The notes under the pieces were generated by a model. The model was not told the origin of the DNA, did no database searches, and was given only the letters and a program-made list of their open reading frames with translations. From Candidatus Yanofskybacteria bacterium RIFCSPLOWO2_01_FULL_39_28 (GTDB lineage: Bacteria > Patescibacteriota > Minisyncoccia > 2-02-FULL-40-12 > GWA2-44-9), in the NCBI GenBank assembly GCA_001794635.1, contig MGKE01000014.1:112984-176983 (forward strand): DNA of 64,000 nucleotides. Direction: 5' to 3'. Made by a program: the position numbers and the translations under genes. Positions 7,737 through 35,992 of this stretch are shown piece by piece; the stretch's first letter is position 1, and each line of letters begins with the position of its first letter.

Positions 7737-7847
7737 ATCGGCAGAGTAAGCATTTTTTCGGGCACGGCGTAAATTCTTGCTAGAATTTCGCCTTTTACTC
7801 AGCTCGTCAGCTTCCGTAAATCCCTTAAAAATACTTACTCTGCCGAT
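7737..7847 (+). repeat. three-way-junction intergenic element, copy A
   Basis: The outer stem atcggcagagtaagcatttttt / aaaaatacttactctgccgat encloses the core ttcgggcac-ggcgtaaattcttgctagaatttcgcc-ttttactc-agctcgtcagct-tccgtaaatccct. Confidence 0.85.
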
Positions 7848-7880
7848 ATATAAGGTAATCCTTTTGTAAAAGTGAGCGAA

Positions 7881-7978
7881 ACCTTGGCCTTATTTGGGGA
7901 TTTGCGCAGGCTGGCTGAGCCGAGCAAAAGACAAAAAGTCAGCAGACTTTTATGGCGTGCCCCAAATAAGGATAAGGT
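7881..7978 (-). repeat. three-way-junction intergenic element, copy B (diverged); a further fragment lies at 7989-8010
   Basis: The outer stem accttggccttatttgggg / ccccaaataaggataaggt encloses gggatttgcgca-ggctggctgagcc-gagcaaaagac-aaaaagtcagcagactttt-atggcgtgcccc. The architecture matches the other copies, but the stem sequences differ. Confidence 0.7.
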
Positions 7979-8069
7979 GAAGCGATATATTTACATCGTG
8001 CCCGAAAAAGATTTGTCTCTGGTTATTTTCTTGCATTTAACTTGGTTATCCAGTATACTTCTAACCACT

Positions 8070-9167
8070 ATGCAAACGATTACTATGGACAATTCACAAA
8101 TAAAGTCAATGAAAGATCTCTTGGCCAAAGAGGATTTTGGTTTGCCAAAAGCTGGCCAACTGCTTCAAGGAGAAATAATCAATATTTCAAAGTCAAATGT
8201 TTTTATTGACCTTGGTCCCATAGGTATCGGCATTGTCTACCCTGGCCAGTTTTATGATAATCCTGACCGAATGAAGGGTCTCAAAAAAGGAGGTCATGTC
8301 TCCGTTATGCTTATTGAACTTGAAAATGATGAGGGTTACCGAGAATTATCTCTAAAAGCCGCTCAACTCACTACTGCTTGGGAAGATATCCGCGAGAAAA
8401 TGGAAAAAGGAGAACTTGTAAATACTACTATTGTAAATATAAACAAGGGTGGATTAATTGTTGAGTTAAGCGGTATTCAGGGTTTTCTTCCATTATCCCA
8501 GCTCTCCGGAGAACATTATCCAAAAGTTGAGGGCGGAGATACAACTAAAATCGTCCAGGCTCTTCAGAAATTCAAAGGTCAGGAGTTTAAGGTCAAGATA
8601 ATTGATTTTAATGAAGCAGAAAACAAACTCATTGTTTCAGAAAGAGCTATTAAGGAAGAGGCGGCCAAAGAAGAATTAGCTAAATTAACCGTCGGCCAAA
8701 TAATTGACGGTGAGATCACCGAAGTTACCGACTTTGGAGCTTTTGTTAGATTAAGCGATACTTTAGATGCTTTAATCCATTCATCCGAAATAGATTGGAA
8801 ATTTGTAGATAACCCGAAAGACATATTAAAAGCCGGCGAAAAAATAAAAGCTAAGATTATAAACTTAGATATGGCTACGGGTCGAGTTTTCCTTTCATTA
8901 AAAGCCCTCAAGGACGACCCTTGGTTAAAAATTGATGACAAATATCAAGCTGGTCAGAAAATAAAAGGCAAGGTTATAAAAATTCGCCAGAATGGAGCAT
9001 TCATTGAATTACCAGGCAACATAATTGGCCTTCTCCCTGCTTCTGAACTCGGTGATAAGTCTCCGGCCGAAATTCTTGAACAAGGCAAAGAGTATGATAT
9101 GGCCATCGTCTCAATAGACGCCAAGGACCACAAACTCTCATTGACTTTGGAAAAAACAACCGAATAA
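8070..9167 (+). CDS. 30S ribosomal protein S1-like protein (four S1 domains)
   Basis: I move the start to ATG 8070 (MQTITMDNSQ) because 7872-8069 of the tracked ORF translates the repeat elements. Four G-x-V/I...GAFV/GLIVEL S1 motifs are present. Confidence 0.8.
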   Translation: MQTITMDNSQIKSMKDLLAKEDFGLPKAGQLLQGEIINISKSNVFIDLGPIGIGIVYPGQFYDNPDRMKGLKKGGHVSVMLIELENDEGYRELSLKAAQLTTAWEDIREKMEKGELVNTTIVNINKGGLIVELSGIQGFLPLSQLSGEHYPKVEGGDTTKIVQALQKFKGQEFKVKIIDFNEAENKLIVSERAIKEEAAKEELAKLTVGQIIDGEITEVTDFGAFVRLSDTLDALIHSSEIDWKFVDNPKDILKAGEKIKAKIINLDMATGRVFLSLKALKDDPWLKIDDKYQAGQKIKGKVIKIRQNGAFIELPGNIIGLLPASELGDKSPAEILEQGKEYDMAIVSIDAKDHKLSLTLEKTTE

Positions 9168-9194
9168 ATTACTCAAAATTAAAAAGCCGGATGC

Positions 9195-10268
9195 TTAGTG
9201 CACCGGCTTATAATCTACCACGCGCTGGTCCTCGGAAAGGTCAAGAAACTCTTCCAACCAGGCAGCGTATTCTCGATCTTCTTGATTTCTCAACTCTTCA
9301 ACACTCGGAATGCCATCAGAGTCTTCAGAGTCTTCAATCTCTTCGGTTACCAGTAAGACTTCTTCCGATTCAACTGTCTCGGGTGTCCCCAACTCCACTT
9401 CTTCTCTCCTTAAAGCGTCATCGAGTTTTCTTCCCAAAAATTTAATCCAAAAATCTCTATCAACATATTCCATTTTTTGCGATACCGAAATATCAAAAAC
9501 ATCATACCATTCCGTAGGAGACGGTCTATATCCTCCGACCGGAAACCTTGGGTCACCGTTGCCAACTGAAAATATGCTCCACCACGAAGAATGAATTTTG
9601 TCGCGAATATCAGGGAGATACGGATCCATGGATCTTAAATGCCTGTAGAGCCTCAGAGTTGAAGCAAGCGTAGATCTGACATGAGACCAATAGGGCCGAT
9701 CGGGGTGAGTAAATCGATTAAAAAACTGCTTCGGCAAGGAAACCGCCAGGTCAAACCAGTCGCTTTTATCAACTTCGTGTTTTTCAATATGAAGATCGGG
9801 ATAAGAGATGAATGAGGTCATCTGTCCCCAGAGTGTTATTTTTCTATGTCCCCCTGGACAAATAATTCCTCTCTTGTTAACACGATCTTTGTATTTGTAA
9901 TCAAACAAAAAAACTCCTGGATAGTTGGTAATTATCTCAATGTCCCGATAACCAGTTTCACAAACAAATTCTCTTATTCCACCGGCAATGATCAACTTTT
10001 GAGTCTCGCTTAGTGAACGATCGGCAAGAATTGGATGATCGGGGCCATAAAGTTCTACTAATCTTTCTCGATCGTCTGCTTCAAGCCCACCGCCACCATT
10101 GCCCCAGCCGGCTTTTTTGGATTCATTATCGTAATACTCAAGATTAGGACTTTCCTGTTCTTCAAGGTTGTGAGCCCACCTAAACATAGTTGGGATATGA
10201 GGATGTCGAGCTAAAACTTGAACGGTTATACCTTTATTGTTGGGATCAACCCAGGATGGCAAGGCCAT
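9195..10268 (-). CDS. island gene 1: hypothetical protein with acidic C-terminal tail
   Basis: 357 aa, no motif I recognise. SD GGAG lies upstream. GC is visibly higher than in the flanks. Confidence 0.6.
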   Translation of the reverse strand: MALPSWVDPNNKGITVQVLARHPHIPTMFRWAHNLEEQESPNLEYYDNESKKAGWGNGGGGLEADDRERLVELYGPDHPILADRSLSETQKLIIAGGIREFVCETGYRDIEIITNYPGVFLFDYKYKDRVNKRGIICPGGHRKITLWGQMTSFISYPDLHIEKHEVDKSDWFDLAVSLPKQFFNRFTHPDRPYWSHVRSTLASTLRLYRHLRSMDPYLPDIRDKIHSSWWSIFSVGNGDPRFPVGGYRPSPTEWYDVFDISVSQKMEYVDRDFWIKFLGRKLDDALRREEVELGTPETVESEEVLLVTEEIEDSEDSDGIPSVEELRNQEDREYAAWLEEFLDLSEDQRVVDYKPVH

Positions 10269-10294
10269 GACAAAGAACTCCTTTCTTGGCTATA

Positions 10295-10323
10295 AGTATA
10301 TATTGAAAATAATATTTAGTCAA
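10295..10323 (-). promoter_or_regulatory. sigma70-like promoter for island gene 1
   Basis: The minus strand reads TTGACT-17 nt-TATACT, followed by GGAG and the ATG at 10268. Confidence 0.5.
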
Positions 10324-10330
10324 GTCAACC

Positions 10331-10364
10331 AAAAAAATTAAAACCCCGTCCTTTTGAGACGGGG
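10331..10364 (-). terminator. rho-independent terminator after island gene 2
   Basis: The minus strand reads ccccgtc-tcaaaag-gacgggg followed by ttttaattttttt. Confidence 0.7.
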
Positions 10365-10374
10365 TGGAACAAAT

Positions 10375-11295
10375 CTATCTTAGACTAACAGCTCTTTGAA
10401 TCATCTTCTCCACACTTCGGCGAAGATTATAATCCCGACGGACATGGGCAATTGTCCCATAGGCCGTTCGGAGTTTGCTTGAATAAGCCATCCAGCGACC
10501 ATATCCATTGCTAATCACGTAGCCAGGAACATGACGCTCGTGTGAAAGACGCAAGGTAATAGAAGATGCAATTACTAAATAGCGCCGGAATAATTCAAAC
10601 TCTTTCTCAATAGTCATATCGTTCTGCAACAACTCTTCATCCAATGATTTAGCCAATTCACTTACAACATCAAGAAAACCATACAAGTAAGCCTGGGTGT
10701 TGCCTTGGAAATTTTTCCAAGAGACTACCGCCGGTACCTGGTCAGTTCTTCCAACAATCACTGGCCAAATCTTGCCGAACAAGTTGGCTTCAAACGCTTC
10801 TTGCCAGATCGTCCGGCTGAAACGGTTACCAGTCTCGGCAATTTCACCGTTAACCGAGGCTTCATTGAGACCTAACGAAAGTCGCTCCATGTCATTTTCA
10901 AGAAAAGCCATTTCTTCTTCAGAATTTGCATCGCCCATCTGCGCTTCATTAATATAAGCCTTGCTCAAATCACTCATCAGGTTCTGGGATGAATAACCTA
11001 CTGTGCCATAATTTCTCCGCAGGCGGTCAAGGTGTTCATGCAAACCGTTCATGGCTTCATCCATTTTTTCATACATATGAAAGTCACCAACTGGATCAGG
11101 AATAACAACCCTCGGTTTTTTGATTCTGCGCAGAAATTCGTCAGCTCTTACATCTCTGGTATCTCTCTGTCTTTCTGCTGTTTGTTCTTTCGGGACTGAA
11201 TTAAGTGCCAAGAGATAACCTTCATCAAGTTGCCTTTTTCTGTCTTTGATTTCAGACAAAAAATCACCGGGTGGCACGCTCTGCCTTTCTTCCAT
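10375..11295 (-). CDS. island gene 2: hypothetical protein, possible translin/TRAX-like helical nuclease fold
   Basis: 306 aa. AYLYGFLDVVSELAKSL resembles the translin/TRAX DYLxGxxDxxGELxR helix, and QEAFEAN gives ExxE upstream. This is a recollection-based similarity only. Confidence 0.55.
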   Translation of the reverse strand: MEERQSVPPGDFLSEIKDRKRQLDEGYLLALNSVPKEQTAERQRDTRDVRADEFLRRIKKPRVVIPDPVGDFHMYEKMDEAMNGLHEHLDRLRRNYGTVGYSSQNLMSDLSKAYINEAQMGDANSEEEMAFLENDMERLSLGLNEASVNGEIAETGNRFSRTIWQEAFEANLFGKIWPVIVGRTDQVPAVVSWKNFQGNTQAYLYGFLDVVSELAKSLDEELLQNDMTIEKEFELFRRYLVIASSITLRLSHERHVPGYVISNGYGRWMAYSSKLRTAYGTIAHVRRDYNLRRSVEKMIQRAVSLR

Positions 11296-11452
11296 TGTCT
11301 GTCTCTCTCCTACCTTCCCGTACTTGTTAAATAGCTGTTAGGCAACAGCTGCTTAGGTTTTTATCGGGTTAAAACCTAAAAAGCTATCGCCTAAAAATAT
11401 AGTTATAAAATACACCATTTCACAAACCTTGTCAATAATTTGAGGGTTGGGG

Positions 11453-11481
11453 TTGACAAAATCAGTGTTTCTTGCTACAAT
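11453..11481 (+). promoter_or_regulatory. near-consensus sigma70 promoter for island gene 3
   Basis: TTGACA (11453-11458), a 17-nt spacer, then TGcTACAAT (-10 at 11476-11481). The -35 is the right half of the inverted repeat TTGTCAA(11429-11435)-N17-TTGACAA(11453-11459). Confidence 0.6.
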
Positions 11482-11589
11482 GTATCCATACGGTGCAGTC
11501 CCGCACCTTGACAACGACAATCACCGATTTGGCTATGAGTTTGAAGGTTTTACCCGATACTCATCCAAGTCAAAACAGGAGAAAAACAG

Positions 11590-13509
11590 ATGGAAACGAT
11601 GCAGCATGCTTTCAAAAATGTTGGCACTGGCAGGGGGCAGAGTGCGACCAAACGGGCCGCGAACGAACTCAAGCCAGTCCCCACCCCGGCCCAGTTCAAG
11701 GCCATGGTGGAGTCGCGGCTGGCCAGGTTACGTCAAAGGACGACCCAACAGGCCGATGAGGAGGTGACGGAATACATAGCCGCCCTCAAGGGCCAGGAAG
11801 AGGAAGTTCTCTCTGCTATCGAGCAGGAGAATGAGCTCAAGGAAACGTTCCGTCAGGGCACGGTTGACCGGACGGACGCCGACCGACGGATCGCCGAGTA
11901 CACCGCCCTCAAGAACGAGATACAGGGTCAACTCCGGCAGTACGCCGGAGATCCTGAATACGCTCAGGCCTATCAGGATGCCTCACAGCTGATGAACACG
12001 CGTCGCCAGGCACAGGCCGCAGCCGATCAGATCGCCGAAGATCATCGTCGGGCCTACGAAGGCACCGAGGATCGTCCCCAGCCGTATGGCAAAGGGACGG
12101 CCGATGTCATCAACGCCGATGTGGAATCGGCGGTGGCTTCCAACTTCGTCGTCAAGACGGAGAAGGGAGAAACGGCGACCTTCACCTGGAAGGGCGTCGG
12201 CTACCGCTCGGTTCGGCCCGCCGACTCGATCGTATCCGCCCCAGCTCTGGAACTCGCCAACTTCATCGGCGAGTCCCAGAAGTTCCGCAACGAGCGGAAC
12301 GATGAGGTGGAGAACCGAGTCAGGTGCGACGGCTTCCTGATCTCGTTCAAGAGCGAACCCGATGGAAAGGGTGGCAAGCTCCCCTCGGAACTGGATCTGA
12401 TCCAGGAAGAGGTGGGGGTTTTCGTCAAGACCCTGACCGCGCTTTGTGCCGGCAAGGGCGAGAAGACTCTCGTCCGCCTGCCAGATCGGCAGGGCGAAGT
12501 GCTTCTGGAGCGAGTTGCTCCGGGATCATCGGATGCGTTCCTGACCCGGGCGACAAACGCCAGGGTGGCGGATCAGCTCTTCTACTGGGATGACCGCAAC
12601 AACCCGGGGGCAAGGGCCAAGAGGAAGATGTACGCCATCAACCTCAACGATCTCACTTTTGAGAACGTTCGTCCGGGCTGGTTCGGCGACGCCATGGCGG
12701 AGCAGATCCGCCGGGAAGCGCAGTCCCAGGAAAACTGGAAGAGGGCCGACGGCTTGCGGGATGTCTCGCAGGTTAAGTACCTCATCCCAGCCAACGGGCT
12801 AGCCTACCTTCGGGAAGTCGGCACGTGCGTCGTGGACGCTCGTCCGACTTTGATGATTGGTGGCCGTGAGCATCAGCATGAGCTGACGCTCCACATCATT
12901 GGTCTGGACAACGACGAATTCCAGGTCACGGAGTTTGTTCCGGGGACGGTTGAAAGACTGGACCCGGCGAAGACCTGGCTGGTACCTGCCATTGAAAAGC
13001 CCCAGCCACGCCGGCTCCTCCGCGAGGTAGCCGAGTGGAAGGAAGTCGTCAAAGCCAACTCGTGGTCAGACCGCGATTGGCAGGTCAATCGGGAAGCGGC
13101 ACAGCGCGGAGCTGTCGCCATAACCCGGGAGAACCAGAACGACTTCTGGGGCATCAATGAGGGCGAAGGCAAGGACGGTTTCTACACCGTCCGCGGCAAC
13201 GCCCGAGGACGGTTCCTCGAAAACGATTCGGTCGGTCGGCCGCAGTTTGAGCAACACGCGGCCGGATTCATCGTCCAGCGGACTAGTTCGGAAACGGACC
13301 AGCCGATGTTAGAGATCGTCTGGCACGTGCCCTACGGCAAATCGGCTGAAATCGCCAAGGGTAACCGTGGCAAGCTCCCGCTTGCCAACATCCCGAACCA
13401 AATCCGAGGAGTCCTCGGAAACGTCTACTACTTGGTCAACCGGACCAAGGGTGGACCTCGGGTGGCCACGCCGGCTCACCTCATTCCCGTCAAGCAGGTC
13501 AAGGAGTAA
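11590..13509 (+). CDS. island gene 3: large GC-rich hypothetical protein
   Basis: 639 aa. AGGAG lies 8 nt upstream of the ATG. N-terminal coiled-coil-like region, no motif recognised. One sampled line (12001-12060) is 39/60 G+C, against 25/60 at 8101-8160. Confidence 0.7.
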   Translation: METMQHAFKNVGTGRGQSATKRAANELKPVPTPAQFKAMVESRLARLRQRTTQQADEEVTEYIAALKGQEEEVLSAIEQENELKETFRQGTVDRTDADRRIAEYTALKNEIQGQLRQYAGDPEYAQAYQDASQLMNTRRQAQAAADQIAEDHRRAYEGTEDRPQPYGKGTADVINADVESAVASNFVVKTEKGETATFTWKGVGYRSVRPADSIVSAPALELANFIGESQKFRNERNDEVENRVRCDGFLISFKSEPDGKGGKLPSELDLIQEEVGVFVKTLTALCAGKGEKTLVRLPDRQGEVLLERVAPGSSDAFLTRATNARVADQLFYWDDRNNPGARAKRKMYAINLNDLTFENVRPGWFGDAMAEQIRREAQSQENWKRADGLRDVSQVKYLIPANGLAYLREVGTCVVDARPTLMIGGREHQHELTLHIIGLDNDEFQVTEFVPGTVERLDPAKTWLVPAIEKPQPRRLLREVAEWKEVVKANSWSDRDWQVNREAAQRGAVAITRENQNDFWGINEGEGKDGFYTVRGNARGRFLENDSVGRPQFEQHAAGFIVQRTSSETDQPMLEIVWHVPYGKSAEIAKGNRGKLPLANIPNQIRGVLGNVYYLVNRTKGGPRVATPAHLIPVKQVKE

Positions 13510-13531
13510 CAACTCCAAGGCCTGAACACCA

Positions 13532-13576
13532 AACCCCTCATCCAGCACACAGCTGGATGAGGGGTTGTTCTTTTTT
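13532..13576 (+). terminator. strong rho-independent terminator after island gene 3
   Basis: aacccctcatccagc-acaca-gctggatgaggggtt followed by gttctttttt. Confidence 0.85.
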
Positions 13577-13584
13577 ATAAAGTA

Positions 13585-13593
13585 TGGTATAAT
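13585..13593 (+). promoter_or_regulatory. extended -10 promoter element for island gene 4
   Basis: TGgTATAAT, embedded in the palindrome ggtataatacc. Confidence 0.45.
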
Positions 13594-13679
13594 ACCACCA
13601 TCTATGAAAGGATTGTATCTTTAACAAAAAAGGCCTAAACGGCCGGACCAAGTAAAACTTGGCCCAAAGGAGAGACGGG

Positions 13680-14729: not shown

Positions 14730-14738
14730 AACGACGAA

Positions 14739-14781
14739 GCCCCGACAGGTTTACATGAATCTCATGTAAACCTGTCGGGGC
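14739..14781. terminator. bidirectional hairpin terminator between convergent island genes 4 and 5
   Basis: Perfect 20-bp stem gccccgacaggtttacatga / tcatgtaaacctgtcggggc with a 3-nt loop. Confidence 0.75.
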
Positions 14782-14797
14782 ATTTAAATTGGTTCAA

Positions 14798-15946: not shown

Positions 15947-15974
15947 CTTTGGCCCACCTCCATGGGCTCTAAAA

Positions 15975-17598: not shown

Positions 17599-19410
17599 AT
17601 GAAAATCTTCGTTAAATATGTTTCAATTGTTTTTCTTATCCTTTTGGCGGCCACATCATTGGTTGTACTTTTTGAATCGTCCCAAAAAGAAAAGGCGGTC
17701 ATTCCCCTTTCCGAACTGGTGGCCAAAATAAATGCAGGTGAAGTTAGGCAGATAGATGTCAAGGGGGAGTCGCTGGAAATAATCTTAAATAACGACGAAA
17801 CTATCCTAGCCAAAAAAGAAGTGGGTGTTTCTGTTTTTGAAACCTTATTAAACGTCGGGGCCGAAAGAGAAAAACTTGCCCAGACCAAAATAGAAATCAA
17901 AGAGCCCTCCGGAACAATGGTTGTATTGTCTAATGTTTTGCCGGCTATTTTGCCTTTTGCTTTAATAATTTTCATCTTCTGGTTCATGTTCCGCCAGGCC
18001 CAAAAAGGTTCAATGCAAGCGTTCAGTTTTGGAAAAACAAAAGCCCGTTTGGCCGGTTTAACCAACGGCAAGAAAACTATGTTCAAAGATGTGGCTGGTT
18101 TGGTTGAAGCCAAAGAAGAAATATCCGAAGTAGTTGAATTCTTGAAAGACCCTAAAAAATTCCACAAACTCGGTGCCCGTATTCCAAGAGGGATACTTCT
18201 CATCGGCACTCCCGGCACCGGCAAAACCATGCTGGCCAAAGCCGTCGCCAACGAAGCCAATGTCCCCTTCTACTTCGTATCCGGTTCGGAATTTGTTGAA
18301 ATGTTCGTCGGTGTCGGCGCCAATCGCGTCCGCGATACTTTTGAAATGGCCAAGAAAACCGCTCCCTCAATTATTTTTATTGACGAGATAGACGCTGTCG
18401 GCCGGCACCGAGGTGCCGGTCTTGGCGGAGGCCACGACGAAAGAGAACAAACCCTCAACCAAATCTTAGTTGAAATGGATGGTTTTGAAACTAATGATGC
18501 TTGTATAGTCATGGCCGCAACTAACCGACCGGATATTCTTGATCCGGCCTTACTAAGGCCTGGGCGTTTTGACCGAAGAGTTATTCTTGACGATCCCTCA
18601 ATGAAAGACCGAGAAGCTATTTTGAAAATACACACCCTTGATAAGCCACTGGCAAAAGATGTAAATCTCAAAGTTGTCGCCGAGCGAACACCGGGATTTT
18701 CTGGAGCTGACTTAGCTAACCTAGTCAATGAAGGCGCCATTCTAGCCGCTCGCAAAAATAGAAACGATATAACCCAGGAGAATATGCTTCAAGCCATAGA
18801 AAAAGTAATGCTTGGCCCCGAAAGACGCTCCCATGTTTTCAGTAAAAAAGAAAAAGAAATCGCCGCCTATCATGAGGCCGGCCATGCTATTGTTGCCACC
18901 TTCCTCCCTCATACTGACCCCGTCCACAAAGTCTCTATTATCTCCCGAGGCCGGGCCGGAGGTTATACTTTAAAACTTCCGACCGAAGACAAGCATCTCC
19001 GCTCTCGTTCCGAATTTGAATCAGAATTGGCTGTTTTACTTGGCGGTTATACGGCTGAAAAATTAGTTTTTAAAGAACTGACCACCGGCGCTTCCAATGA
19101 TCTTAAAGTCGCCTCCGAACTTGCCCGTAAAATGGTTACTCAATATGGCATGTCGGACAAGCTTGGACCGGTAAATTACAAGCAAGGCGAAGAACTTGTT
19201 TTCTTGGGCAAAGAAATGGCCGGTGAAAAACTATATTCCGAAACAATTGCTTTTGAGATTGACAAGGAGATCAAAAGATTAATAGTTGATGGCATGAAAA
19301 AAGCTAAAGAAGTTATTACTAAAAAAATGGATACTCTGACCAAAGTTGCCAAAACACTAATTGAAAAAGAAACTCTGGAACAAAAAGAGTACTTCGCTTT
19401 GGTAAAATAG
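17599..19410 (+). CDS. ftsH: ATP-dependent zinc metalloprotease FtsH
   Basis: 603 aa. Walker A GTPGTGKT, the SRH region, and the HEAGHA zinc motif. Confidence 0.97.
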
Positions 19411-19415
19411 TTACT

Positions 19416-19513
19416 CAGCTTCGCCCGTTCAGGGCACGATGTAAATTTTTGCTAAAATTTCATCTTTTACTCGGCCCAGTCGGCCTCCGTAAATCCCTTC
19501 ACGGGCTGGAAGC
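19416..19513 (+). repeat. three-way-junction intergenic element, copy C
   Basis: cagcttcgcccgt...agggcac-gatgtaaatttttgctaaaatttcatc-ttttactc-ggcccagtcggcc-tccgtaaatccct...acgggctggaagc. Starts 6 nt after the ftsH stop. Confidence 0.85.
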
Positions 19514-19582
19514 CTCGTACTATTTTACATAATTTTTCGTTGACCAGATATAATTTTGGCGGTAAAATAAAGGATGTTTTGA

Positions 19583-19656
19583 GGGTGTGTAGCTCAGCTG
19601 GTTAGAGCATTTCACTTATAATGAAAAGGTCCCTGGTTCAAATCCAGGCACACCCA
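19583..19656 (+). tRNA. tRNA-Ile(UAU)
   Basis: Hand-folded cloverleaf with acceptor gggtgtg/cacaccc, anticodon stem tttca/tgaaa and loop cuUAUaa. No encoded CCA. Confidence 0.85.
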
Positions 19657-19660
19657 CATT

Positions 19661-22036: not shown

Positions 22037-22072
22037 ATAAAATTAAAACTGATAGGATGTCCGATCAGAAAA

Positions 22073-22099
22073 CTAAAAACCCTAATATAGGGTTTTTAG
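22073..22099. terminator. bidirectional hairpin terminator
   Basis: ctaaaaaccc-taatata-gggtttttag lies between the convergent ORF 21680-22036 and tRNA-Phe. Confidence 0.7.
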
Positions 22100-22104
22100 T
22101 TTTC

Positions 22105-22402
22105 TGGTGCCGCGGGAGGGAGTTGAACCCCCGACGCCAGCCTCTTCCAAAGCTGAATTGGACTATATCATCACCCCCTTAGAATTTATATAAAGAGGGG
22201 CTGGGCGCTTATATAGGATTATCGTTGGGACTCACCTATTAGTCTCTACACCTGCCGGAAAATCAAAGCCCCTTCCGGATCGGCTCGGGATTGTTTCTGT
22301 TAAAGAAGTTTCCCCCGAATTCACCCAGTTTTTCTCAGAACTCATTACTAAGTTCGGCCCCAAAGAATTTAGGGCTGCGCTCTACCGCTGAGCTACCGCG
22401 GC
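22105..22402 (-). tRNA. tRNA-Phe(GAA) interrupted by a group I intron
   Basis: 5' exon gccgcggtagctcagcggtagagcgcagccct (22402-22371). 3' exon gaagaggctggcgtcgggggttcaactccctcccgcggcacca (22147-22105). Joined, they give the anticodon loop cuGAAga with A73. Confidence 0.8.
22148..22370 (-). ncRNA. group I intron (IC3-like, tRNA-type), ~223 nt, no internal ORF
   Basis: P1 pairs gcccu with ggggc, with the U.G pair at the 5' splice site. ucuuu next to the guide pairs with the 3' exon gaaga (P10). The terminal residue is G. ggtgaattcgggggaaac and aggtgtagagacta match my memory of the Azoarcus tRNA-Ile intron core (GGUGUAGAGACUA). Confidence 0.75.
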
Positions 22403-22605
22403 ATTAATCTATGCTTATTATATCAAAATCTGAAATATTTTCAATACTTATTCTATCTTCCCCGTTTAGAGGTAAGAAGTTATCGACATTAGCTTATCCA
22501 CAAAAACAAAAAATAATTAATACGTTGTGCGACTATTTAGTTGTACACACCCAGTTATTAACAAATTATATTGAAAAGTGAACTGCTGTGCTATACTTAT
22601 AGGTA

Positions 22606-23301: not shown

Positions 23302-23303
23302 TT

Positions 23304-27327: not shown

Positions 27328-27581
27328 AAATTGTCTTTTTTAATACTCTTGACATTTGTATTTAACTATGATATCATATAAATATAGTGTTACTCCTGAT
27401 TTCGTAGGTTCGCGTTTACAAACCGAGCACTCAATTTATTGAGTGCTCGGCCAACCTTTTCCTTATTATACAAGGAATTTCAGTAACCGCAACCCTCACG
27501 GGTTAATTGCCTATCGGATCGGGGGTTTCGCCCGCCTTGACTGAACTATTAGTTTGGTCGGGTAAAATCAGACAGTAAAAC

Positions 27582-27611
27582 AAAACCCCGCCTTCTATAG
27601 GGCGGGGTTTT
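27582..27611. terminator. hairpin terminator after tig (T-runs on both strands)
   Basis: aaaaccccgcc-ttctatag-ggcggggtttt. Confidence 0.8.
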
Positions 27612-27626
27612 GTTTTGTACAGAGAA

Positions 27627-28907
27627 TTATACAGAATATCTTTTCTCCAAAAACTCAAATACTTTTTCATTAGTGAGTTCGGCCAGTGCCGCTTCTCTTG
27701 TGTTCGCCAAATTAATATTTTCTGGATTAACCTCGCCTTTTGATGTCATTGCTTGAATTAAATTATTGGCCATTTCTTCAATCTCTTCTGGGGTTGGTTT
27801 TATATTATTATCCTTGGCTATCTTTTTTAGAATTAAGGCGAAAGCAACTTGTTTTTCAGCTTCCGGCCGCCAGTCTTTTCTGAGGTCATCTTCGGTTTTA
27901 TTTAAATGAGCTAGATGTATTGATAATTCCATTCCTTTCAAGTGGAGATCGTTATCAAATTTAACAACCATCTCATTTAGCCGTTCATTGATCATGTCTT
28001 TCGGCAAATCAATTTTGGATTTAGCTAAAATACCTGAAAGAATTTCTATCCTCAATCTTTGCTGTTCTTTGTTTTTTTTCTCATCCAAAATACCCTCGCT
28101 TACATTCCGCTCCAAATCATGCAGTCCTTCAAATTGGCCTAGACTCCTGGCAAATTCATCACTCAAAGCCGGTTTTTGGATTTCTTCAACTTTAATCACT
28201 TTGACCTCAAAGTCCAATTCTTTACCGGCAACGGCTTTGTGGAAATAATCTTTGGGAGCAATGAGTGAGAACTTTTTTTCCTCCCCTTCTTTCATCCCCA
28301 AAAGTTGGTCTTCAAATCCTGGAATAAATTTGTTATCCCCAACCACAACGGGGTGGTTTTTACTAACTCCGCCTTCAATCGGCAAGCCGTTTTGGGTTAC
28401 TTCAAAATCAACCTCAGCCCTATCACCCTTCTCTATTGATTTATGCTTACGAATAAACTTAGAACGTGATATTCTTATAAACTCCAAAGCGTCATCTATT
28501 TCTTTTTTATCTACCGAAACTTCTTTTTTCTTTACTTTAAAACCGATTAAGTTACCGAACGTAACTGGTGGGAAAATCAAAAGATTGACGATATATAATA
28601 GTTTGGAAGCTGAGTTTTCTTTAATTTTTAAATCTGAAACTTTTAATACCTCCAAGCCCTCTTTTTCCAGAGTTTTAGCTAGACTATCTTGAAGAGCTAT
28701 ATTCAATCCTTCTTCAAGAATACCCTCATTTCCAACTTCCTGCCGAACCTTATCCCGGGGGACTTTGCCTTGGCGAAAACCATCAACTTTAATTTCTTTG
28801 GCAAACTTGTCTTCAGCAGCTTGAACATAACGCTTTAAGTCGTCGTGGCCGACTTCCACTGTGAGTTCATATCTGTTTTGTTCTAATTTCTTTAGAGTAG
28901 ATTCCAC
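27627..28907 (-). CDS. tig: trigger factor
   Basis: 426 aa with a GTG start after AAGGAG. GFRQGKVPR motif and a central FKBP-type region (FIPGFEDQLLGMKEGE). Confidence 0.9.
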   Translation of the reverse strand: MESTLKKLEQNRYELTVEVGHDDLKRYVQAAEDKFAKEIKVDGFRQGKVPRDKVRQEVGNEGILEEGLNIALQDSLAKTLEKEGLEVLKVSDLKIKENSASKLLYIVNLLIFPPVTFGNLIGFKVKKKEVSVDKKEIDDALEFIRISRSKFIRKHKSIEKGDRAEVDFEVTQNGLPIEGGVSKNHPVVVGDNKFIPGFEDQLLGMKEGEEKKFSLIAPKDYFHKAVAGKELDFEVKVIKVEEIQKPALSDEFARSLGQFEGLHDLERNVSEGILDEKKNKEQQRLRIEILSGILAKSKIDLPKDMINERLNEMVVKFDNDLHLKGMELSIHLAHLNKTEDDLRKDWRPEAEKQVAFALILKKIAKDNNIKPTPEEIEEMANNLIQAMTSKGEVNPENINLANTREAALAELTNEKVFEFLEKRYSV

Positions 28908-29004
28908 TTCTTCGCTCCTTGCGGAGCTTCAAAGTGCAGGCATTTCTTCATTAGAGCGAAGAAGTGCCCTTCCGAAGCTTTAGCGAAGGAGGGCTATATT
29001 AATT

Positions 29005-30267: not shown

Positions 30268-30518
30268 TATAAAAGAGACGAGCAACAAGCTACCAAGGAA
30301 CAAGAAAGAAAAATTAGACTTGATCGCATGGCCTCTTGTTTCTTGTCGCTATTTAAAATTTAAGGCCCGCTCCAGCGGACCTTGAACAGAAATACTTAAC
30401 CCTATCATCTTATCAAATTATACAAAACGAGTCAAGGGGTAAACGCTTTGTGGTATAATTTATTATAGATATCCACAAATTTTATTTACAAAACCAGCAC
30501 ATTCGCTAATACAAATAC

Positions 30519-31925
30519 ATGCCTTCACAATCACCTGCTCAAAAACACGAAGAAGTGTTAGAAAAAAAATTAAGTGAGATCAGAAAATCTAACCAACCCA
30601 AACCAGCTCAGAAACCAGCTGTTCCCTCTTCATCTGCTCCAAAAACTTTTCAAATTGGCGCTATAGAAATAAATGAAGACGAATTAAACCATCTTGGGAA
30701 CCAGATTAAAGATATTAGCGACATCAAAAACAAACTCCAGACAGTATCAGCTACTAAGCTTCTGGAAATATTGGTTGCTGGAGCTTTAAAAACTAAATGC
30801 TCTGATATTCACCTTGAACCGGAAGCCGATAAAACTCGCGTCCGGTATCGTTTAGATGGTGTTCTGCACGATATTTCGTTTTTTGAAAAAAGTTCTTATA
30901 ACAAAGTTTTGAACAGGATAAAGATTCTGTCCAAAATGAAAATAAACATCCACGATTCTCCCCAAGATGGAAGATTTACCATTAAACAGAAAAGTGTGGA
31001 TATAGAAGTCAGGGTATCAATAATACCAAGTGAGTTTGGTGAAACAATTGTAATGCGGCTCCTTGATCCGAGAACTATCAAGGGAACATTGGAAGATTTG
31101 GGTCTGCGTCAAGATCTCTTACTAATTATTCGCGAAGAATTAAAAAACAAAACCGGAGCTATCTTAACCAGTGGTCCGACCGGTTCCGGTAAAACCACCA
31201 CTCTTTACGCCTTTGTTAACACTCTAAACGAATCGGGGACCAAAATAATTACCATTGAAGACCCTATTGAATATCATATTCCCGGCATATCTCAAACCCA
31301 AGTAGACCAAAAGAAAAAATATACCTTTACCAACGGACTTAAAGCTATTATCAGACAAGATCCTGATATTATTCTGGTTGGCGAAATCAGGGATAAAGAA
31401 ACAGCTGAAATTGCTTTAAATGCCGCTTTAACCGGACATCTGGTTTTATCAACTATTCACACCAATAATGCTGCTGGGATAATACCTCGTCTTATTGATT
31501 TGGGGGTTAAGCCACAAATTATCGCCCCGGCAATTAACTTATCTATAGCCCAAAGATTATTGAGAAAACTCTGTCCAGCTTGTAAAAAACAAGTCCAAGC
31601 AACAGATAAAGAGTTAGAAAAAATTAAAAAAGTCCTTGAGCCGATAAGTAAAAAGGTTGATTTTCCAAAACTTACTTCTTCCTTGAAATTATATACCGCC
31701 GGCCAGTGTCATAAGTGTAACTCTTCAGGGTATCTGGGCCGAACTGGTATCTTTGAGTTATTCCAAATTTCAGAAAATATTGAGAGATTAATACTGACAT
31801 CGCCATCAATTTTAGACATTGAAGAAACAGCTTTAAAAGAAGGGCTAACGACAATGCTGCAAGATGCTTACCTTAAACTTTTAGAGGGTATCACATCAAT
31901 AGAAGAAATAGAAAGTGTGCTTTAG
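30519..31925 (+). CDS. type II/IV secretion ATPase (GspE/PilB family)
   Basis: 468 aa. Walker A SGPTGSGKTTT, DPDIILVGEIRD, a His box, and a tetracysteine CPAC...CHKC. Confidence 0.88.
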   Translation: MPSQSPAQKHEEVLEKKLSEIRKSNQPKPAQKPAVPSSSAPKTFQIGAIEINEDELNHLGNQIKDISDIKNKLQTVSATKLLEILVAGALKTKCSDIHLEPEADKTRVRYRLDGVLHDISFFEKSSYNKVLNRIKILSKMKINIHDSPQDGRFTIKQKSVDIEVRVSIIPSEFGETIVMRLLDPRTIKGTLEDLGLRQDLLLIIREELKNKTGAILTSGPTGSGKTTTLYAFVNTLNESGTKIITIEDPIEYHIPGISQTQVDQKKKYTFTNGLKAIIRQDPDIILVGEIRDKETAEIALNAALTGHLVLSTIHTNNAAGIIPRLIDLGVKPQIIAPAINLSIAQRLLRKLCPACKKQVQATDKELEKIKKVLEPISKKVDFPKLTSSLKLYTAGQCHKCNSSGYLGRTGIFELFQISENIERLILTSPSILDIEETALKEGLTTMLQDAYLKLLEGITSIEEIESVL

Positions 31926-31940
31926 ACCTGTTATTTAATA

Positions 31941-32116
31941 AATAAGTGGTTCTCTTTAATCTGTAGGCAAATCCATCTACCAAAGGCGGACGGGGCAGGA
32001 TAGTTCCGAGGAGTAGTCCAGTCGAAACCGAGCTATCCAACTAAGATTATATCCCAATTAGGCCAACAAGATAAATCCCTGGCCTAATTGCCTACAGATT
32101 AAAGGTAACCACTTAT
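31941..32116 (+). repeat. 176-nt element closed by a ~29-bp near-perfect terminal helix (candidate structured ncRNA or MITE)
   Basis: aataagtggttctctttaatctgtaggcaa pairs with ttgcctacagattaaaggtaaccacttat. Internal hairpins ggatag...ctatcc and aattaggcc...ggcctaatt. Confidence 0.6.
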
Positions 32117-32161
32117 CTAAAGTTCCACACAAAAAGCTCCTATATTTTAAGCTAAAACAAT

Positions 32162-33172
32162 ATGAATGTCAACCCAAAATTAACGCCTCAAACAACCGCT
32201 GATGATCAAGTTCTTGATCAAGCTTTGCGTCCAAAAACATTTACCGAGTATGTCGGCCAAATCAAAATCAAAGAAAATCTGAAAATACTCATCGGGGCCG
32301 CCAAAAAAAGAAACGAACCCATAGAACATATTCTGCTTCACGGCCCTTCCGGACTAGGTAAGACCACTTTGGCCTATTTGATCGCCAAAGAGTTGGGTTC
32401 TAGTTTAAAGGTTACTTCGGGCACCGCTCTTGAGAAAGCTGGTGATGTCGGCTCAATTCTGACGGGTTTAAACGACGGTGATGTTTTGTTTATTGACGAA
32501 GTTCATCGTTTAAACAAAGCCGTAGAAGAAGTTATTTATCCGGCCATGGAGGGTTTTAAGCTGGATATTATTATCGGCAAAGGCAACTCGGCTAAAACCT
32601 TGCAAATAGACCTGCCTAAATTCACTCTTATTGCCGCCACTACAAAAATATCAATGCTTTCCAGCCCCTTTCGTTCACGATTTGGCATGAACTTTCGCCT
32701 TGATTTTTACAATCAAGAAGATATAGAAAAAATAATTGCCCGTTCGGCCAAACTTTTAAATGTATCCATCCAGTCCCAAGCAATTAAACTAGTAGCCCAA
32801 GCTTCCCGCTTTACTCCTCGCATTGCCAACAGACTCCTCAAAAGAGTCCGTGATTACGCTCAAATGGCCGACCAAGACATTATTAACCCAGAAACAGCGC
32901 AAAGTACCTTAAAAATGCTTGAAGTTGATGACAAGGGTCTTGAGGACACGGATCGCAAAATACTCTCAACCATCGCTGAAACTTTTGACGGCGGACCGGT
33001 TGGCTTAAAAGCTGTCGCCGCCGCCATCTCCGAAGAAGAAAACACCATAGAAGATGTCTATGAACCCTATCTCATCCGAGCCGGCCTTATAGCCAGAACC
33101 TCCAAAGGCCGGATAATCACCCAACAAGGTTTAAAACATTTAGGGCTCAAGAAATCTCTGTTGGATTTTTAA
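32162..33172 (+). CDS. ruvB: Holliday junction branch-migration helicase RuvB
   Basis: 336 aa. LRPKTFTEYVGQ, GPSGLGKTT, and Walker B VLFIDEVHRL. Confidence 0.95.
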   Translation: MNVNPKLTPQTTADDQVLDQALRPKTFTEYVGQIKIKENLKILIGAAKKRNEPIEHILLHGPSGLGKTTLAYLIAKELGSSLKVTSGTALEKAGDVGSILTGLNDGDVLFIDEVHRLNKAVEEVIYPAMEGFKLDIIIGKGNSAKTLQIDLPKFTLIAATTKISMLSSPFRSRFGMNFRLDFYNQEDIEKIIARSAKLLNVSIQSQAIKLVAQASRFTPRIANRLLKRVRDYAQMADQDIINPETAQSTLKMLEVDDKGLEDTDRKILSTIAETFDGGPVGLKAVAAAISEEENTIEDVYEPYLIRAGLIARTSKGRIITQQGLKHLGLKKSLLDF

Positions 33173-33173
33173 A

Positions 33174-33286
33174 AAGCCAGAGAGCGGTTATTCTTCGGGC
33201 ACGACGTAAATTTTTGCTAAAATTTCGTCTTTTACTCGCACCGGACCGTGCTCCGTAAATCCCTCAGAATAACCGCTCTCTGGCTT
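33174..33286 (+). repeat. three-way-junction intergenic element, copy D
   Basis: The 21-bp outer stem aagccagagagcggttattct / agaataaccgctctctggctt encloses the conserved core. Starts 2 nt after the ruvB stop. Confidence 0.9.
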
Positions 33287-33294
33287 AAAATCAT

Positions 33295-33801
33295 ATGTCC
33301 GGTCATTCGCGCTGGTCGCAGATAAAACACAAGAAAGGAGCAAATGACAAAAAGAGGGCCCAGTTGTTTTCTAAACTTTCAAAACTAATTTCCTTAGCCG
33401 CCAGAAAAGGCGCCAATCCGGAAACAAATATGGAATTGAAAAATGCTATTGAGCAAGCCCGTTCTTTTGATGTACCTAATGATAATATTGAAAGAGCTAT
33501 AAAAAAAGCCTCCGATAAGTCAGCCACCCAACTTGAAGAGTTGTCTATTGAAGCAATCGGACCAGGTGGTATCGCTTTAAAAATTAAGGCCATTACCGAT
33601 AATCGTAATCGGACTATTGTTGAAGTTAAACATATTTTGAGCGAAAACAATTCTAAACTAGTCCCGCCTGGGACTATTTCCTGGATGTTTAACCAAAAGG
33701 TTTCCATTACTGACCTAGAAACACAAAACCGGATAGACAAACTTTTTGAAGCATTAGATGATCAGAATGATGTGGAAAATGTTGAATCTAATTTAAAGTA
33801 A
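33295..33801 (+). CDS. YebC/PmpR-family protein, short form
   Basis: 168 aa. MSGHSRWSQIKHKKG...DNRNRT matches YebC, but about 75 aa of the usual middle/C-terminal domain is missing relative to the ~245-aa proteins I remember. Confidence 0.8.
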   Translation: MSGHSRWSQIKHKKGANDKKRAQLFSKLSKLISLAARKGANPETNMELKNAIEQARSFDVPNDNIERAIKKASDKSATQLEELSIEAIGPGGIALKIKAITDNRNRTIVEVKHILSENNSKLVPPGTISWMFNQKVSITDLETQNRIDKLFEALDDQNDVENVESNLK

Positions 33802-33907
33802 CAAGAAGTAGGGTCTTTTGAGGGATTTACGGAGCGCGACTGGCGCGAGTAAAAGACGAAATTTCAGTAGAAATTTACGTCGTGCCCGAAAAAGACTTAC
33901 TTCTTGT
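33801..33907 (-). repeat. three-way-junction intergenic element, copy E (inverted relative to D)
   Basis: The outer stem acaagaagtagggtctttt / aaaagacttacttcttgt begins at the last base of the yebC stop codon. Confidence 0.9.
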
Positions 33908-33914
33908 TATGTAA

Positions 33915-34370
33915 ATGATAATCCTAGGAATTGACCCGGGTACAACTAGAATCGGTATCGGTGTTATCAAAAAAGATAGAAACAAACTATCTTGCCTTTA
34001 TTACGGCCTGATTAAGCAACCCTCCCCCGCTTTAATAACTTCGGAAATTTCTGAATTAATTAGGAAGTATAGGCCAGAAGTAGCCGCTGTAGAAAAAATA
34101 TTTTTCTTTAAAAACCAAAAAACCATAATATTGGTCAGTGAGATGAGGGGGGTAATTTTGGCAGCTCTGGCTGTTAATGGTATCCCAACTAGAGAATTTA
34201 CCCCCCTTCAAGTTAAACAAGCCGTATCCGGTTATGGTCGCTCTGGGAAGCATCAGGTTGAACTTATGGTTAGGATGATCTTAGGGCTAAATCAAGAAAT
34301 TAAACCAGATGATGCTGCTGATGGTTTAGCTATTGCAATTTGTTGCGCAAATACTATTATACGAGAATAA
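33915..34370 (+). CDS. ruvC: crossover junction endodeoxyribonuclease RuvC
   Basis: 151 aa. ILGIDPGTTRIGIGVI and a C-terminal DAADGLAIAIC. Confidence 0.9.
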   Translation: MIILGIDPGTTRIGIGVIKKDRNKLSCLYYGLIKQPSPALITSEISELIRKYRPEVAAVEKIFFFKNQKTIILVSEMRGVILAALAVNGIPTREFTPLQVKQAVSGYGRSGKHQVELMVRMILGLNQEIKPDDAADGLAIAICCANTIIRE

Positions 34371-34635
34371 AATAGGACTTACGCGTGAGTCCTATAAAAT
34401 TTAACCTAAAGTTCCCGTTTGTATCTATTAAGGTAGCTTATGAATACCTTAGTAATCCGAACCGGAAAGAATCGGTATAATGATTGAGGAAAAAGAAATA
34501 TTTTCTCTTCACGCCGAAGAAGACGACAGCGAAATAGAAAAAACCAAAGAAGAAGAAATGGCTGAAGAAGATACTGAGGAAGATGACAAGGATGAAGAAG
34601 ATGATACTGAGGGTGATGATTTTGAGAGCTAACTT

Positions 34636-35820
34636 TTATTTAACTTTATAAAATTTCCGAGGACCGATTTGGACTATATCCCCGCTTTGTGTTGGGTGAT
34701 CCCATTTTTCAATCACCACGTCGTTAATTTTCACAGCTTTCTGGTCTACTAATCTTTTCATCTCAGAATTTGATTCAACCAGACCAGCTGAAACAGATGT
34801 TTGAATAATATTTCCCTTGTTCTCAACCTCCATAATCTCTTCAGGTTTTTCACCTTTAGAAAAAACTCTCTCAAATTCTTTCCTAGCTTTTTGGGCCTCT
34901 TTTTCTCCATAAAATCTCTTAACAATATCTTGGGCAACAACTATTTTAGCGTCTCTTGGCCCCATTTTAAGAATCTTCTCTTTATCCGATAAAGGAATTC
35001 TCGTAACATTAACAAGTAACACTTCTGTCATTTCGTCTGGTTGAGCCATAATTGCTCCGAACATTTCTTTTGGCGAAAAAGATAGGAAGACGCCTGTTCC
35101 ACGACTCTTAGACATTAACTCGCCTGTTTTAGGATTTTCCATTAAATTCACGGCAACTATAAATTTTTCTTTGTTTTTTAACTTTTTCAATAAAGTACGG
35201 CCAACAAGAGCATTAAATATCTGGTCTGTTCCACACAATTCTACATCAACATCCATAGCAACACTGTCATATCCTTGCATTAATGGATACTGAAATTCAT
35301 GGGAATAAATAGGAATATTACTCTTAAGTCTCTTCTGAAACATATCTCTCTCTTGAAGTTGTTGGACAGTTATGTTGGCTGCCAGTTCAATCTCATCTTC
35401 CCAGGTCATTTTTGAAAGCCAGGCGCTGTTATACAAAACATGGGGTGGATTATCTTTATCATCAAAATCCATTAAAGGTTTTATCTGGGAAATCCAACTC
35501 TTAACATTATTGTCTACTTGTTCTTTTGAGAGTTTGACTCTGGTGGCAGTCTTATCTGACGGATCACCGATTCTAGCAGTAAAATCACCCATCAGAATAA
35601 TAACTTCATGGCCGAGTTGTCTAAACTCTTCCAACAACATGTAGTTTTTAGCATGGCTAAGGTGAAGTGAGTTTGAGGTTGGGTCTACTCCAATATAAAT
35701 TTTTAATCTATTCCCGGCAGTCATTCTTTCAATTAACCGTTCTTTGGTTGGCAAAATTTCAACGACAACACCTCGGTTAATAATTTCTTCTATCCTCTTT
35801 TTATCGGTAATAACTTTCAT
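34636..35820 (-). CDS. tyrS: tyrosine--tRNA ligase
   Basis: 394 aa. HIGH-type motif SLHLSH, KMSKS-type LMSKSRG, and a C-terminal S4-like domain. Confidence 0.85.
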   Translation of the reverse strand: MKVITDKKRIEEIINRGVVVEILPTKERLIERMTAGNRLKIYIGVDPTSNSLHLSHAKNYMLLEEFRQLGHEVIILMGDFTARIGDPSDKTATRVKLSKEQVDNNVKSWISQIKPLMDFDDKDNPPHVLYNSAWLSKMTWEDEIELAANITVQQLQERDMFQKRLKSNIPIYSHEFQYPLMQGYDSVAMDVDVELCGTDQIFNALVGRTLLKKLKNKEKFIVAVNLMENPKTGELMSKSRGTGVFLSFSPKEMFGAIMAQPDEMTEVLLVNVTRIPLSDKEKILKMGPRDAKIVVAQDIVKRFYGEKEAQKARKEFERVFSKGEKPEEIMEVENKGNIIQTSVSAGLVESNSEMKRLVDQKAVKINDVVIEKWDHPTQSGDIVQIGPRKFYKVK

Positions 35821-35876
35821 AAATTAAAAGCTTATACTACAGCTTATAATTTATGCCGCATCTTTTCAACTTATCG

Positions 35877-35992
35877 TTAGTAGCTGGGGTGGGTGTCTTA
35901 AGGGATTTACGGACCGCGACCGGCGGGAGTAAAAGACAAAATTCTAGCAAGAATTTATGTCGTGCCCGAAAAACACCCACCCCAGCTACTAA
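35877..35992 (-). repeat. three-way-junction intergenic element, copy F
   Basis: The outer stem ttagtagctggggtgggtgt / acacccaccccagctactaa encloses the core. It lies between the divergent tyrS and PBP genes. Confidence 0.9.

Follow-up and report, generated by a model that had tools for sequence, protein, structure and literature searches.

An undescribed family of ~100-base hairpin repeats in the intergenic spacers of candidate-phyla bacteria

Why should a bacterium with almost contiguous genes carry large, elaborately folded, non-coding elements between them? The question is posed by a stretch of 64,000 nucleotides (nt) of Candidatus Yanofskybacteria bacterium RIFCSPLOWO2_01_FULL_39_28 (contig MGKE01000014.1, positions 112,984 to 176,983), hereinafter the window, in which an earlier note had listed six copies and a fragment of an intergenic element with a three-way-junction core. 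Genomes of the candidate phyla radiation (CPR, or Patescibacteria) comprise about 1 Mb and are tightly packed, and spacers of 2-11 nt occur at the sites studied here, yet dozens of 100-nt structured repeats are tolerated or kept in the present lineage, even within a ruvB-yebC-ruvC operon. The analysis reported here identifies a real family of ~100-base intergenic repeats that has not been described so far and occurs in a small group of groundwater candidate-phyla bacteria. With a probability of about one half, the element is a lineage-specific, non-coding foldback repeat akin to REP (repetitive extragenic palindromic) sequences, REPINs (REP doublets forming hairpins) or MITEs (miniature inverted-repeat transposable elements), the folded single strand of which would be the substrate of a putative copying machinery. 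We favor this reading because complete hairpins are gained in tiny spacers, the expansion is lineage-specific, copies are nested, doublets are convergent, deletion relics are found, and the stems are strictly Watson-Crick.

All six copies are present at the positions and on the strands originally listed (Table 1; positions are those of the window, the copies are lettered A to F along it, and the strand of copy D serves as the orientation reference throughout). The conserved block TCCGTAAATCCCT has 5 exact occurrences; when up to 2 mismatches are allowed, there are 7 matches against 2.0 expected, a count that was reached in 0 of 100 shuffles. A covariance model built from the six window copies scores them at 94-106 bits (E 1e-26 to 1e-30), and the next matches in the window, with filters off, are plain hairpins of at most 16 bits; hence the window contains exactly six intact copies and none that is half-decayed. 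Each copy folds much better than its dinucleotide shuffles (z -4.5 to -10.7).

Beyond the window, a gapped pattern of the three conserved blocks retrieved 27 stretches in species-representative genomes and 71 in metagenome contigs. The covariance model, the use of which the earlier note had proposed, accepted 104 matches, 70 of them distinct, all on contigs of CPR/Paceibacteria. At least 20 copies belong to Ca. Yanofskybacteria RIFCSPHIGHO2_01_FULL_44_24 (MGJK01); the other genome records with copies are Yanofskybacteria RIFOXYD1_FULL_42_10, one Paceibacterota metagenome-assembled genome (MAG) and two MAGs labelled Saccharibacteria, and the remaining matches lie on metagenome contigs, the majority of which derive from two samples. 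In other phyla (Bacteroidales, Saprospiraceae, Pusillimonas and others), five stretches fitted the pattern but failed the model and are ascribed to chance, and the core pattern produced 0 matches in viral contigs. The suspicion that the element resembles no known family was borne out by comparison with Rfam 15, in which copy D, the A/B pair and a nested MGJK01 array had zero match at the gathering threshold and at E up to 10, apart from junk microRNA-precursor matches of 10-20 bits against thresholds of 88-245; the only Rfam matches in the window that pass the threshold are tRNAs and one group I intron. Full-text literature searches returned no description of such a repeat in CPR.

The copies share one shape, namely, an outer stem P1 of ~20 bp, a 2x2 internal loop, GGG/CCC, and a three-way junction (CAC / U / U) with two further helices, P2 (4 bp followed by a bulged U, then 7 bp and a UGCU loop) and P3 (UUUAC/GUAAA, then the internal loop UC/UCC and a variable tip of 4 bp). 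The two inner hairpins have the sequences listed in the earlier note and do co-vary between copies. The blocks TTTTACTC and TCCGTAAAT, which had been taken as single-stranded, are partly paired, UUUAC with GUAAA, and in copy B this part of P3 is the compensatory UUUGC/GCAAA. Selection on a fold, which was postulated from the window copies, is supported by the 70 distinct copies: standard pairs occupy 94.5% of the pair cells, compared to 72.9% in shuffles and 33-56% when the partners are slid, the covariation score is 0.56 versus 0.17 in shuffles, and 26 of the 33 pairs have changed on both sides. The junction and some of the paired blocks (GGGCAC, CTTTTnCTC, TCCGnAAATCCC) are nearly invariant.

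The manner in which the stems vary is informative as to the nature of the folding strand. G-U pairs fill 20 of the 2293 cells (0.9%) and A-C combinations 63 of the same 2293 (16 and 49, respectively, once the copies are collapsed to 25 clusters), and pairs that alternate between G-C and A-U pass through zero G-U intermediates (for example, 32 G-C versus 30 A-U at one pair). The conserved 2x2 loop is UC/UC on the copy D strand, that is, tandem GA/GA on the opposite strand; the tandem G.A mismatches described previously, which had been seen on the minus-strand copies, are found on that opposite strand only, the D strand reading UC/UC or UC/UU beside GGG/CCC. The excess of A-C over G-U, together with the GA/GA loop, implies that the functionally folding strand, if there is one, is that opposite to the copy D orientation. 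The helices are almost strictly Watson-Crick and in this respect come closer to a DNA palindrome than to a typical RNA.

The outer stem has a median length of 20 bp, with some stems reaching ~27 bp or more. In the earlier note, each copy was thought to be closed by a stem of its own; this proved to be a small-sample effect given that the 70 copies fall into subfamilies sharing the proximal 8-14 nt. Subtype a has the stem ...(T/C)A(A/G)G(C/T)nTTTTTC-GGG / CCC-TCAAAA..., subtype b has ...AGAGCTTGATTTCTG-GGG / CCCC-AGAAATCAACTC..., and subtype c has ...GCTTCGCC-TTRRCCnAT-TCA-GGG; judging from their stems, the window copies A, D, E and F are divergent members of subtype a. The similarity between stems falls off outward from the core. 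Paralogues on one contig (L numbers denote comparison contigs or loci) differ by compensatory changes in the distal stem, with AAATCCTCATCAG/CTGATGAGGATTT in L039:358 against GAATCATCATCAG/CTGATGATGATTC in L039:1964, and distal stem sequence is common to paralogues at different loci (L039:358 and L039:1964; L039:1831 and L057:1417). The whole hairpin is thus inherited on copying, and the stem travels with the element. Searched against all the loci examined, the stems matched orthologues and paralogues only.

Comparison with relatives reveals the gain of complete copies. In L104 (YebC 88% identical), the TAA of ruvB is followed after 11 nt by the ATG of yebC, and the TAA of yebC after 10 nt by the ATG of ruvC, and in L030 (YebC 78%), these spacers consist of 5 and 2 nt, D and E being absent from both contigs; in L029 (81%), unrelated spacers with zero model matches are found at the D and E sites. 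Copies D and E, inclusive of their stems, therefore represent added DNA rather than insertions into an older hairpin. Copies A and B and the fragment are absent in L109 (FtsH 89% identical, syntenic from gyrA to L19), where the spacer between the genes for the metallo-beta-lactamase (MBL)-fold hydrolase and S1 is 73 nt long and holds a promoter only, compared to 448 nt in the window. At the copy F site, L029 and L030 show zero model matches, with spacers of 89 and 71 nt as opposed to 212 nt in the window. The model scan of 53 kb from relatives with FtsH 89-96% identical detected zero intact copies, indicating that the copy number is lineage-specific.

Loss is recorded at the ftsH site, where L109 and L110 carry a relic in which P1 and GGGCGC-GCCGTAAAT are joined straight to TCC-P1', the outcome of a deletion between the two CGTAAAT direct repeats of the core, and L106 (94%) carries a different relic. 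Both relics occupy the loop of a surrounding hairpin that consists of an A-run, stem and T-run (AATAATCTCGC/GCGAGATTATT in L109 and AATATCGC/GCGATATT in L106), the arms of which show compensatory change between L109 and L106. Copy C accordingly is old, lies within an apparent ftsH terminator and decays freely in the sister lineages. As an observation apart, L106 encodes at 12675-13355(-) a protein with a weak LAGLIDADG-domain match; its gene is located in the tRNA region after the relic, ~860 nt downstream of ftsH.

Copies are also nested. In MGJK01, copies are surrounded by 2-4 concentric shells, the 5' pieces of which (P1-5', GGGCAC, GnnnTAAA and a few bases) lie upstream of a full copy and the 3' pieces downstream in mirror order (GGTCAGC, YSCGCAAATCC, P1-3'), so that the whole folds, as predicted, like an onion. 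Five near-identical MGJK01 paralogues have the inner copy and the first shell in common, indicative of a recent expansion. The same layout, a shell around a copy, recurs at L077:231-369, in L099 and at L039:137-225, and it accounts for the fragment in the window: the fragment is present, its extent and strand are refined to 7987-8010(-), and it is the remnant 5' piece of an outer shell copy enclosing B, the matching 3' piece being missing. Other small hairpins are inserted in P2 or P3 loops (L024:4498, L008:1060, L039:173). About 20 of the 73 copies are paired and ~53 are single; all 10 of the 10 distinct adjacent pairs are convergent, and they usually combine subtype a with b or c.

The 73 copies are all intergenic, none lying inside an open reading frame (ORF), and many begin 0-20 nt from a stop codon. 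Where the neighboring genes are co-directional, the strand of copy D is sense in 27 cases and antisense in 7, a count that includes some non-independent copies (clustering by flanks merged hardly any). Among the gene products encoded next to the window copies, the identities of FtsH, RuvB, YebC, RuvC, S1 and the MBL-fold hydrolase were confirmed; further neighbors are TyrS and a penicillin-binding protein. At two sites, the element reaches into the adjacent gene: the distal stem of copy C, GTAAAATAG(T)TA / TACTATTTTAC, takes in the end of ftsH, namely, its final two codons and its stop codon, and the yebC stop codon lies within the outermost base pairs of the copy E stem. A promoter-like site of the downstream gene begins at 35995, just past copy F. 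Copy A has an orthologue in L099 (L099:1240) with compensatory stem changes, in which the P2 tip is swapped for an unrelated helix of equal length.

Table 1. Copies of the repeat and the associated shell piece in the window (MFE, minimum free energy; bits, covariance-model score)
Feature	Position	Strand	Subtype	Core	MFE	z	Bits	Context and structure
Copy A	7737-7847	+	a	7760-7824	-47.2	-8.4	98.2	left member of convergent pair; outer stem ~21 bp, 2x2 loop UC/UU, then GGG/CCC
Copy B	7881-7978	-	c, most divergent	7897-7962			94.2	right member of convergent pair
Shell piece and linker outside copy B	7980-8010 (fragment 7987-8010)	-						5' shell CTTTTTCGGGCACGATGTAAAT and linker ATATCGCTT
Copy C	19416-19513 (pairing extends to 19402-19528)	+	c				98.4	directly after ftsH
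Copy D	33174-33286	+	a		-55.1	-10.7	103.1	ruvB-yebC spacer, sense to operon; perfect 21-bp outer stem
Copy E	33801-33907	-	a				101.1	yebC-ruvC spacer, antisense to operon
Copy F	35877-35992	-	a		-62.8	-9.6	106.1	divergent tyrS / penicillin-binding-protein spacer; outer stem ~22 bp

Several simple identities were considered for these copies and rejected. Intrinsic terminators are not indicated because a tail with 5 or more T among the 8 nt that follow the 3' arm is found in 6 of 59 hairpins, against a background of 10.6%, and an A-run before the 5' arm in 2 of 59; in general, promoter and terminator scans found nothing consistent at the copies. In some subtypes, the motif RTGCTAAT precedes the hairpin on its 5' side at a distance of 0-10 nt, but window copies D, E and F lack it. 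A promoter reading of this motif, and of TGCTAAAAT in the P2 loop, was discarded given the poor hexamers, the unsupportive scan and the position of the motif within the stem in some copies. A CRISPR (clustered regularly interspaced short palindromic repeats) array does not fit copies that are scattered among housekeeping genes across 28 kb and occur in both orientations.

If the family is indeed a REPIN-like or MITE-like repeat, the copied unit would be the whole hairpin, that is, P1, the conserved 2x2 mismatch beside GGG/CCC and the three-way junction tip. Complete hairpins are gained in tiny intergenic spacers in either orientation, persist until every free stem position has been turned over by compensatory change, and are lost by internal deletion between the two CGTAAAT direct repeats of the core. 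The folded single strand, probably DNA and probably complementary to the copy D orientation, would be recognized by a putative trans-acting enzyme that copies or moves the element, with the three-way-junction tip and the conserved mismatch as the likely recognition features. Effects on the host, such as on mRNA processing or stability, are possible by-products.

Several observations weigh against this scenario. An all-against-all BLAST comparison of ~400 distinct ORFs from ~650 kb of the loci examined detected no recurrent neighbor protein and zero transposases, REP-associated tyrosine transposases (RAYTs) or multi-copy protein families. A search for cargo-carrying versions, in which 5' and 3' halves with complementary flanks would be separated by 250-4000 nt, returned only L039, which is explained by paralogous pairs. 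Neither target-site duplications nor fixed terminal inverted repeats were seen at the copies, and it is the asymmetric tip rather than the ends that is most conserved, which is unusual for a MITE. The window lacks half-decayed copies, and across 70 copies the junction is near-invariant while the stems are saturated; such even preservation and an invariant junction look like purifying selection on each copy. The 27:7 strand bias is also expected of a co-transcribed RNA element. Finally, mobility is deduced from presence or absence between species.

A serious rival view, albeit a somewhat unlikely one, is that the repeats are functional structured RNAs, that is, elements of 3' untranslated regions or intercistronic spacers, or small RNAs, with a protein-binding or catalytic junction and a long stem that would govern RNase III action or stability, the many copies reflecting recruitment at many genes. 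The very strong covariation, the invariant junction nucleotides, the equal preservation of all window copies and the retention of orthologues between species with compensatory changes (A and L099:1240, for example) all agree with this, as do the orientation bias and the closeness of many copies to a stop codon. On the other hand, G-U accounts for 0.9% of the cells only, with no such intermediates where G-C and A-U alternate, and the mismatches favor the strand that is antisense to most of the neighboring genes. Moreover, D and E, in one operon, are sense and antisense, respectively; there is no promoter or U-tract signal, T-rich tails being at background (6/59); copies are nested, truncated and invaded in their loops; the ftsH-site copy decays freely in sister lineages; and no Rfam family matches. 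The original suggestion of a fold that acts either as RNA or as single-stranded DNA thus stands as to the fold, with its RNA half weakened by the scarcity of G-U, the opposite-strand mismatches and the approximately one-fifth of copies between co-directional genes that are antisense.

Next, the three-way junction could be the recognition or catalytic module of a new single-strand element of CPR, a proposal that we consider unlikely. One option is that the strand with the tandem G.A pairs gives rise to a novel ribozyme or protein-binding RNA, and the other a new class of single-stranded DNA substrate for transposition or recombination with a putative enzyme of its own; under either option, the stems would be free to vary, possibly capturing foreign sequence, for which the 25-nt match of the copy D stem to a phage contig (see below) may be compared.

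Still less probable, in our estimation, is the insertion of a small mobile core (~65-90 nt) into the loops of hairpins that were already present, for example terminators, so that the outer stems would be host sequence. This idea, also raised in the earlier note, draws on the ftsH site, where the element or its relic lies inside the outer hairpin described above, which itself changed in a compensatory fashion between L109 and L106, on the perfect 12-20-bp intergenic hairpins of similar size in the window (at 13532, 14739, 22066, 27423 and 27577) and on the copies and other small hairpins found in P2 or P3 loops of older copies. It fails at the D, E and A/B sites, where the spacers of relatives (11, 10, 5, 2 and 73 nt) contain no hairpin, and it conflicts with the distal stem sequence common to paralogues at different loci; insertion into a hairpin loop is retained for copy C and for the nested copies. 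The plain perfect intergenic hairpins with 12-20-bp stems (13532-13566, 14739-14781, 22066-22106, 27423-27450 and 27577-27616), some of which have A-run or T-run flanks, appear to be the ordinary terminators of this genome, with stems as long as the outer stems of the repeat.

The outer stem as captured foreign DNA, a spacer-like guide on a constant scaffold in an RNA-guided defense or targeting system, is highly improbable: the guide-like stem length (20-27 bp) and an exact 25-nt match of the copy D 5' arm and flank (33170-33194) to L105 13129-13153 (IMGVR_UViG_3300023184_000969, a viral contig with 37% GC), within an ORF adjoining a terminase gene and with a chance expectation roughly estimated at ~1e-4 per query, stand against four other stems without a viral match among the five scanned in viral contigs, no hit for 31 concatenated stems in GenBank phages, stems that form subfamilies related by descent with compensatory changes instead of independent captures, and no associated protein gene among the ~400 distinct ORFs. 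The phage-contig match itself could be due to chance or to captured sequence.

The window also contains a second, unrelated family of intergenic foldback repeats, AT-rich hairpins of 90-105 nt with a periodic TAC-nAAT motif and the ends CTACTAATTAC...GTAATTAGTAG, at 6550-6638, 42099-42195, 47031-47122, 47454-47557 and 52594-52683; further members are found in L064 (2799-2891), L052 and L066. The end motif resembles the RTGCTAATTA/TACTAATTA that is located 5' of many copies of the three-way-junction family in other genomes. Two inverted half-copies of the second family, 54919-54967(+) and 55324-55376(-), flank the gene 55347-54952(-), a pseudogene with one in-frame TAA that belongs to the GxxExxY family (TIGR04256, 102 bits) of the PD-(D/E)XK type; this single instance may represent an autonomous or cargo-carrying form of the second repeat. 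The presence of a second foldback family in the same genome suggests that hairpin repeats are a habit of this genome. In addition, a 100-nt intergenic stretch (28903-29002) is 81% identical to positions 2180-2275 of the unrelated contig L064; it could represent a third repeat or, alternatively, a leader or trailer that has been conserved.

Two tRNA genes of the window deserve mention. Positions 19583-19657 encode a tRNA-Ile with the anticodon TAT and immediately follow copy C and a canonical TTGACC-17-TAAAAT promoter. A UAU isoleucine tRNA is uncommon among bacteria. Another tRNA, which ARAGORN missed, is split in the anticodon loop by a group I intron (22138-22380(-), Rfam RF00028, 65 bits) between exons at ~22381-22412 and 22107-22137; it has the acceptor stem GCCGCGG/CCGCGGC and an encoded CCA end, and is followed by the 19-bp hairpin at 22066-22106. 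Group I introns in tRNA genes have been reported in Patescibacteria (PMC13011429), with which this intron is consistent.

The significance of the family is that it combines a clean, covariation-supported structure without a known relative and a natural system of gain, nesting and decay in which hairpin-repeat propagation can be followed without a visible transposase. In practical terms, the repeats are a strain-typing marker, as well as an assembly hazard, in uncultured organisms. If the junction turned out to act as a ribozyme, or to be recognized by a new enzyme as its substrate, a candidate for a new molecular tool would be at hand; otherwise, the family extends the REPIN-like 'resident replicator' idea to CPR.

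Taken as a whole, the family fails the defining features of REP, MITE, intrinsic terminator and CRISPR and, on present sequence evidence, is best described as a structured intergenic repeat; the known systems resemble it to different extents. With the hammerhead and twister-sister ribozymes, it shares the three-way junction, invariant junction nucleotides, co-varying stems, and multiple copies in either orientation that are sometimes clustered; it differs in the lack of an Rfam match to E 10, the absence of the CUGAUGA and GAAA core and the near absence of wobble pairs. Integron attC sites are recognized as a folded single DNA strand, only one strand being active, conserve structure over sequence and lie right after stop codons. 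The primacy of structure and the position after stop codons are likewise seen here, but there is no integrase beside the copies in the annotated stretches and no cassette array in one orientation, and the tip is conserved in sequence.

Correia, ERIC and BOX are modular bacterial intergenic repeats. Like these and the foldback MITEs, the present elements are small, non-coding and intergenic, occur in both orientations, form nested or mosaic arrangements and subfamilies, and vary in presence or absence between close relatives. In contrast to MITEs, neither a target-site duplication nor fixed terminal inverted repeats nor an autonomous parent were found, the tip is the most conserved part, with conservation declining outward from it, and the variation is compensatory rather than random. 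The earlier argument that this is not a simple MITE holds, with no direct repeat at the hairpin bases in the flanks of all copies and with stem ends that differ between copies.

REP and REPIN elements are mobilized by RAYT transposases (Bertels & Rainey 2011, PMC3116915). A REP is an imperfect palindrome of 20-40 nt with a cognate single-copy RAYT (a Y1 HUH transposase), whereas the unit described here is a ~100-125-nt hairpin in which an asymmetric three-way junction of 65 nt caps a 20-bp stem, the ~650 kb of loci yielded no RAYT, no GTAG-type flanking motif is evident, most copies are single, and the members of a pair belong to different subtypes. The likenesses are that both are extragenic, multi-copy, lineage-restricted and hairpin-forming, with frequent compensatory stem changes and long vertical persistence while single copies decay, and that adjacent units are inverted, in 93% of REP doublets (PMC3116915) and in 10 of 10 pairs here, although pairs comprise only about 20 of the 73 copies. 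In its behavior, the family seems more like a genomic repeat of the REP/REPIN type than a classical regulatory RNA.

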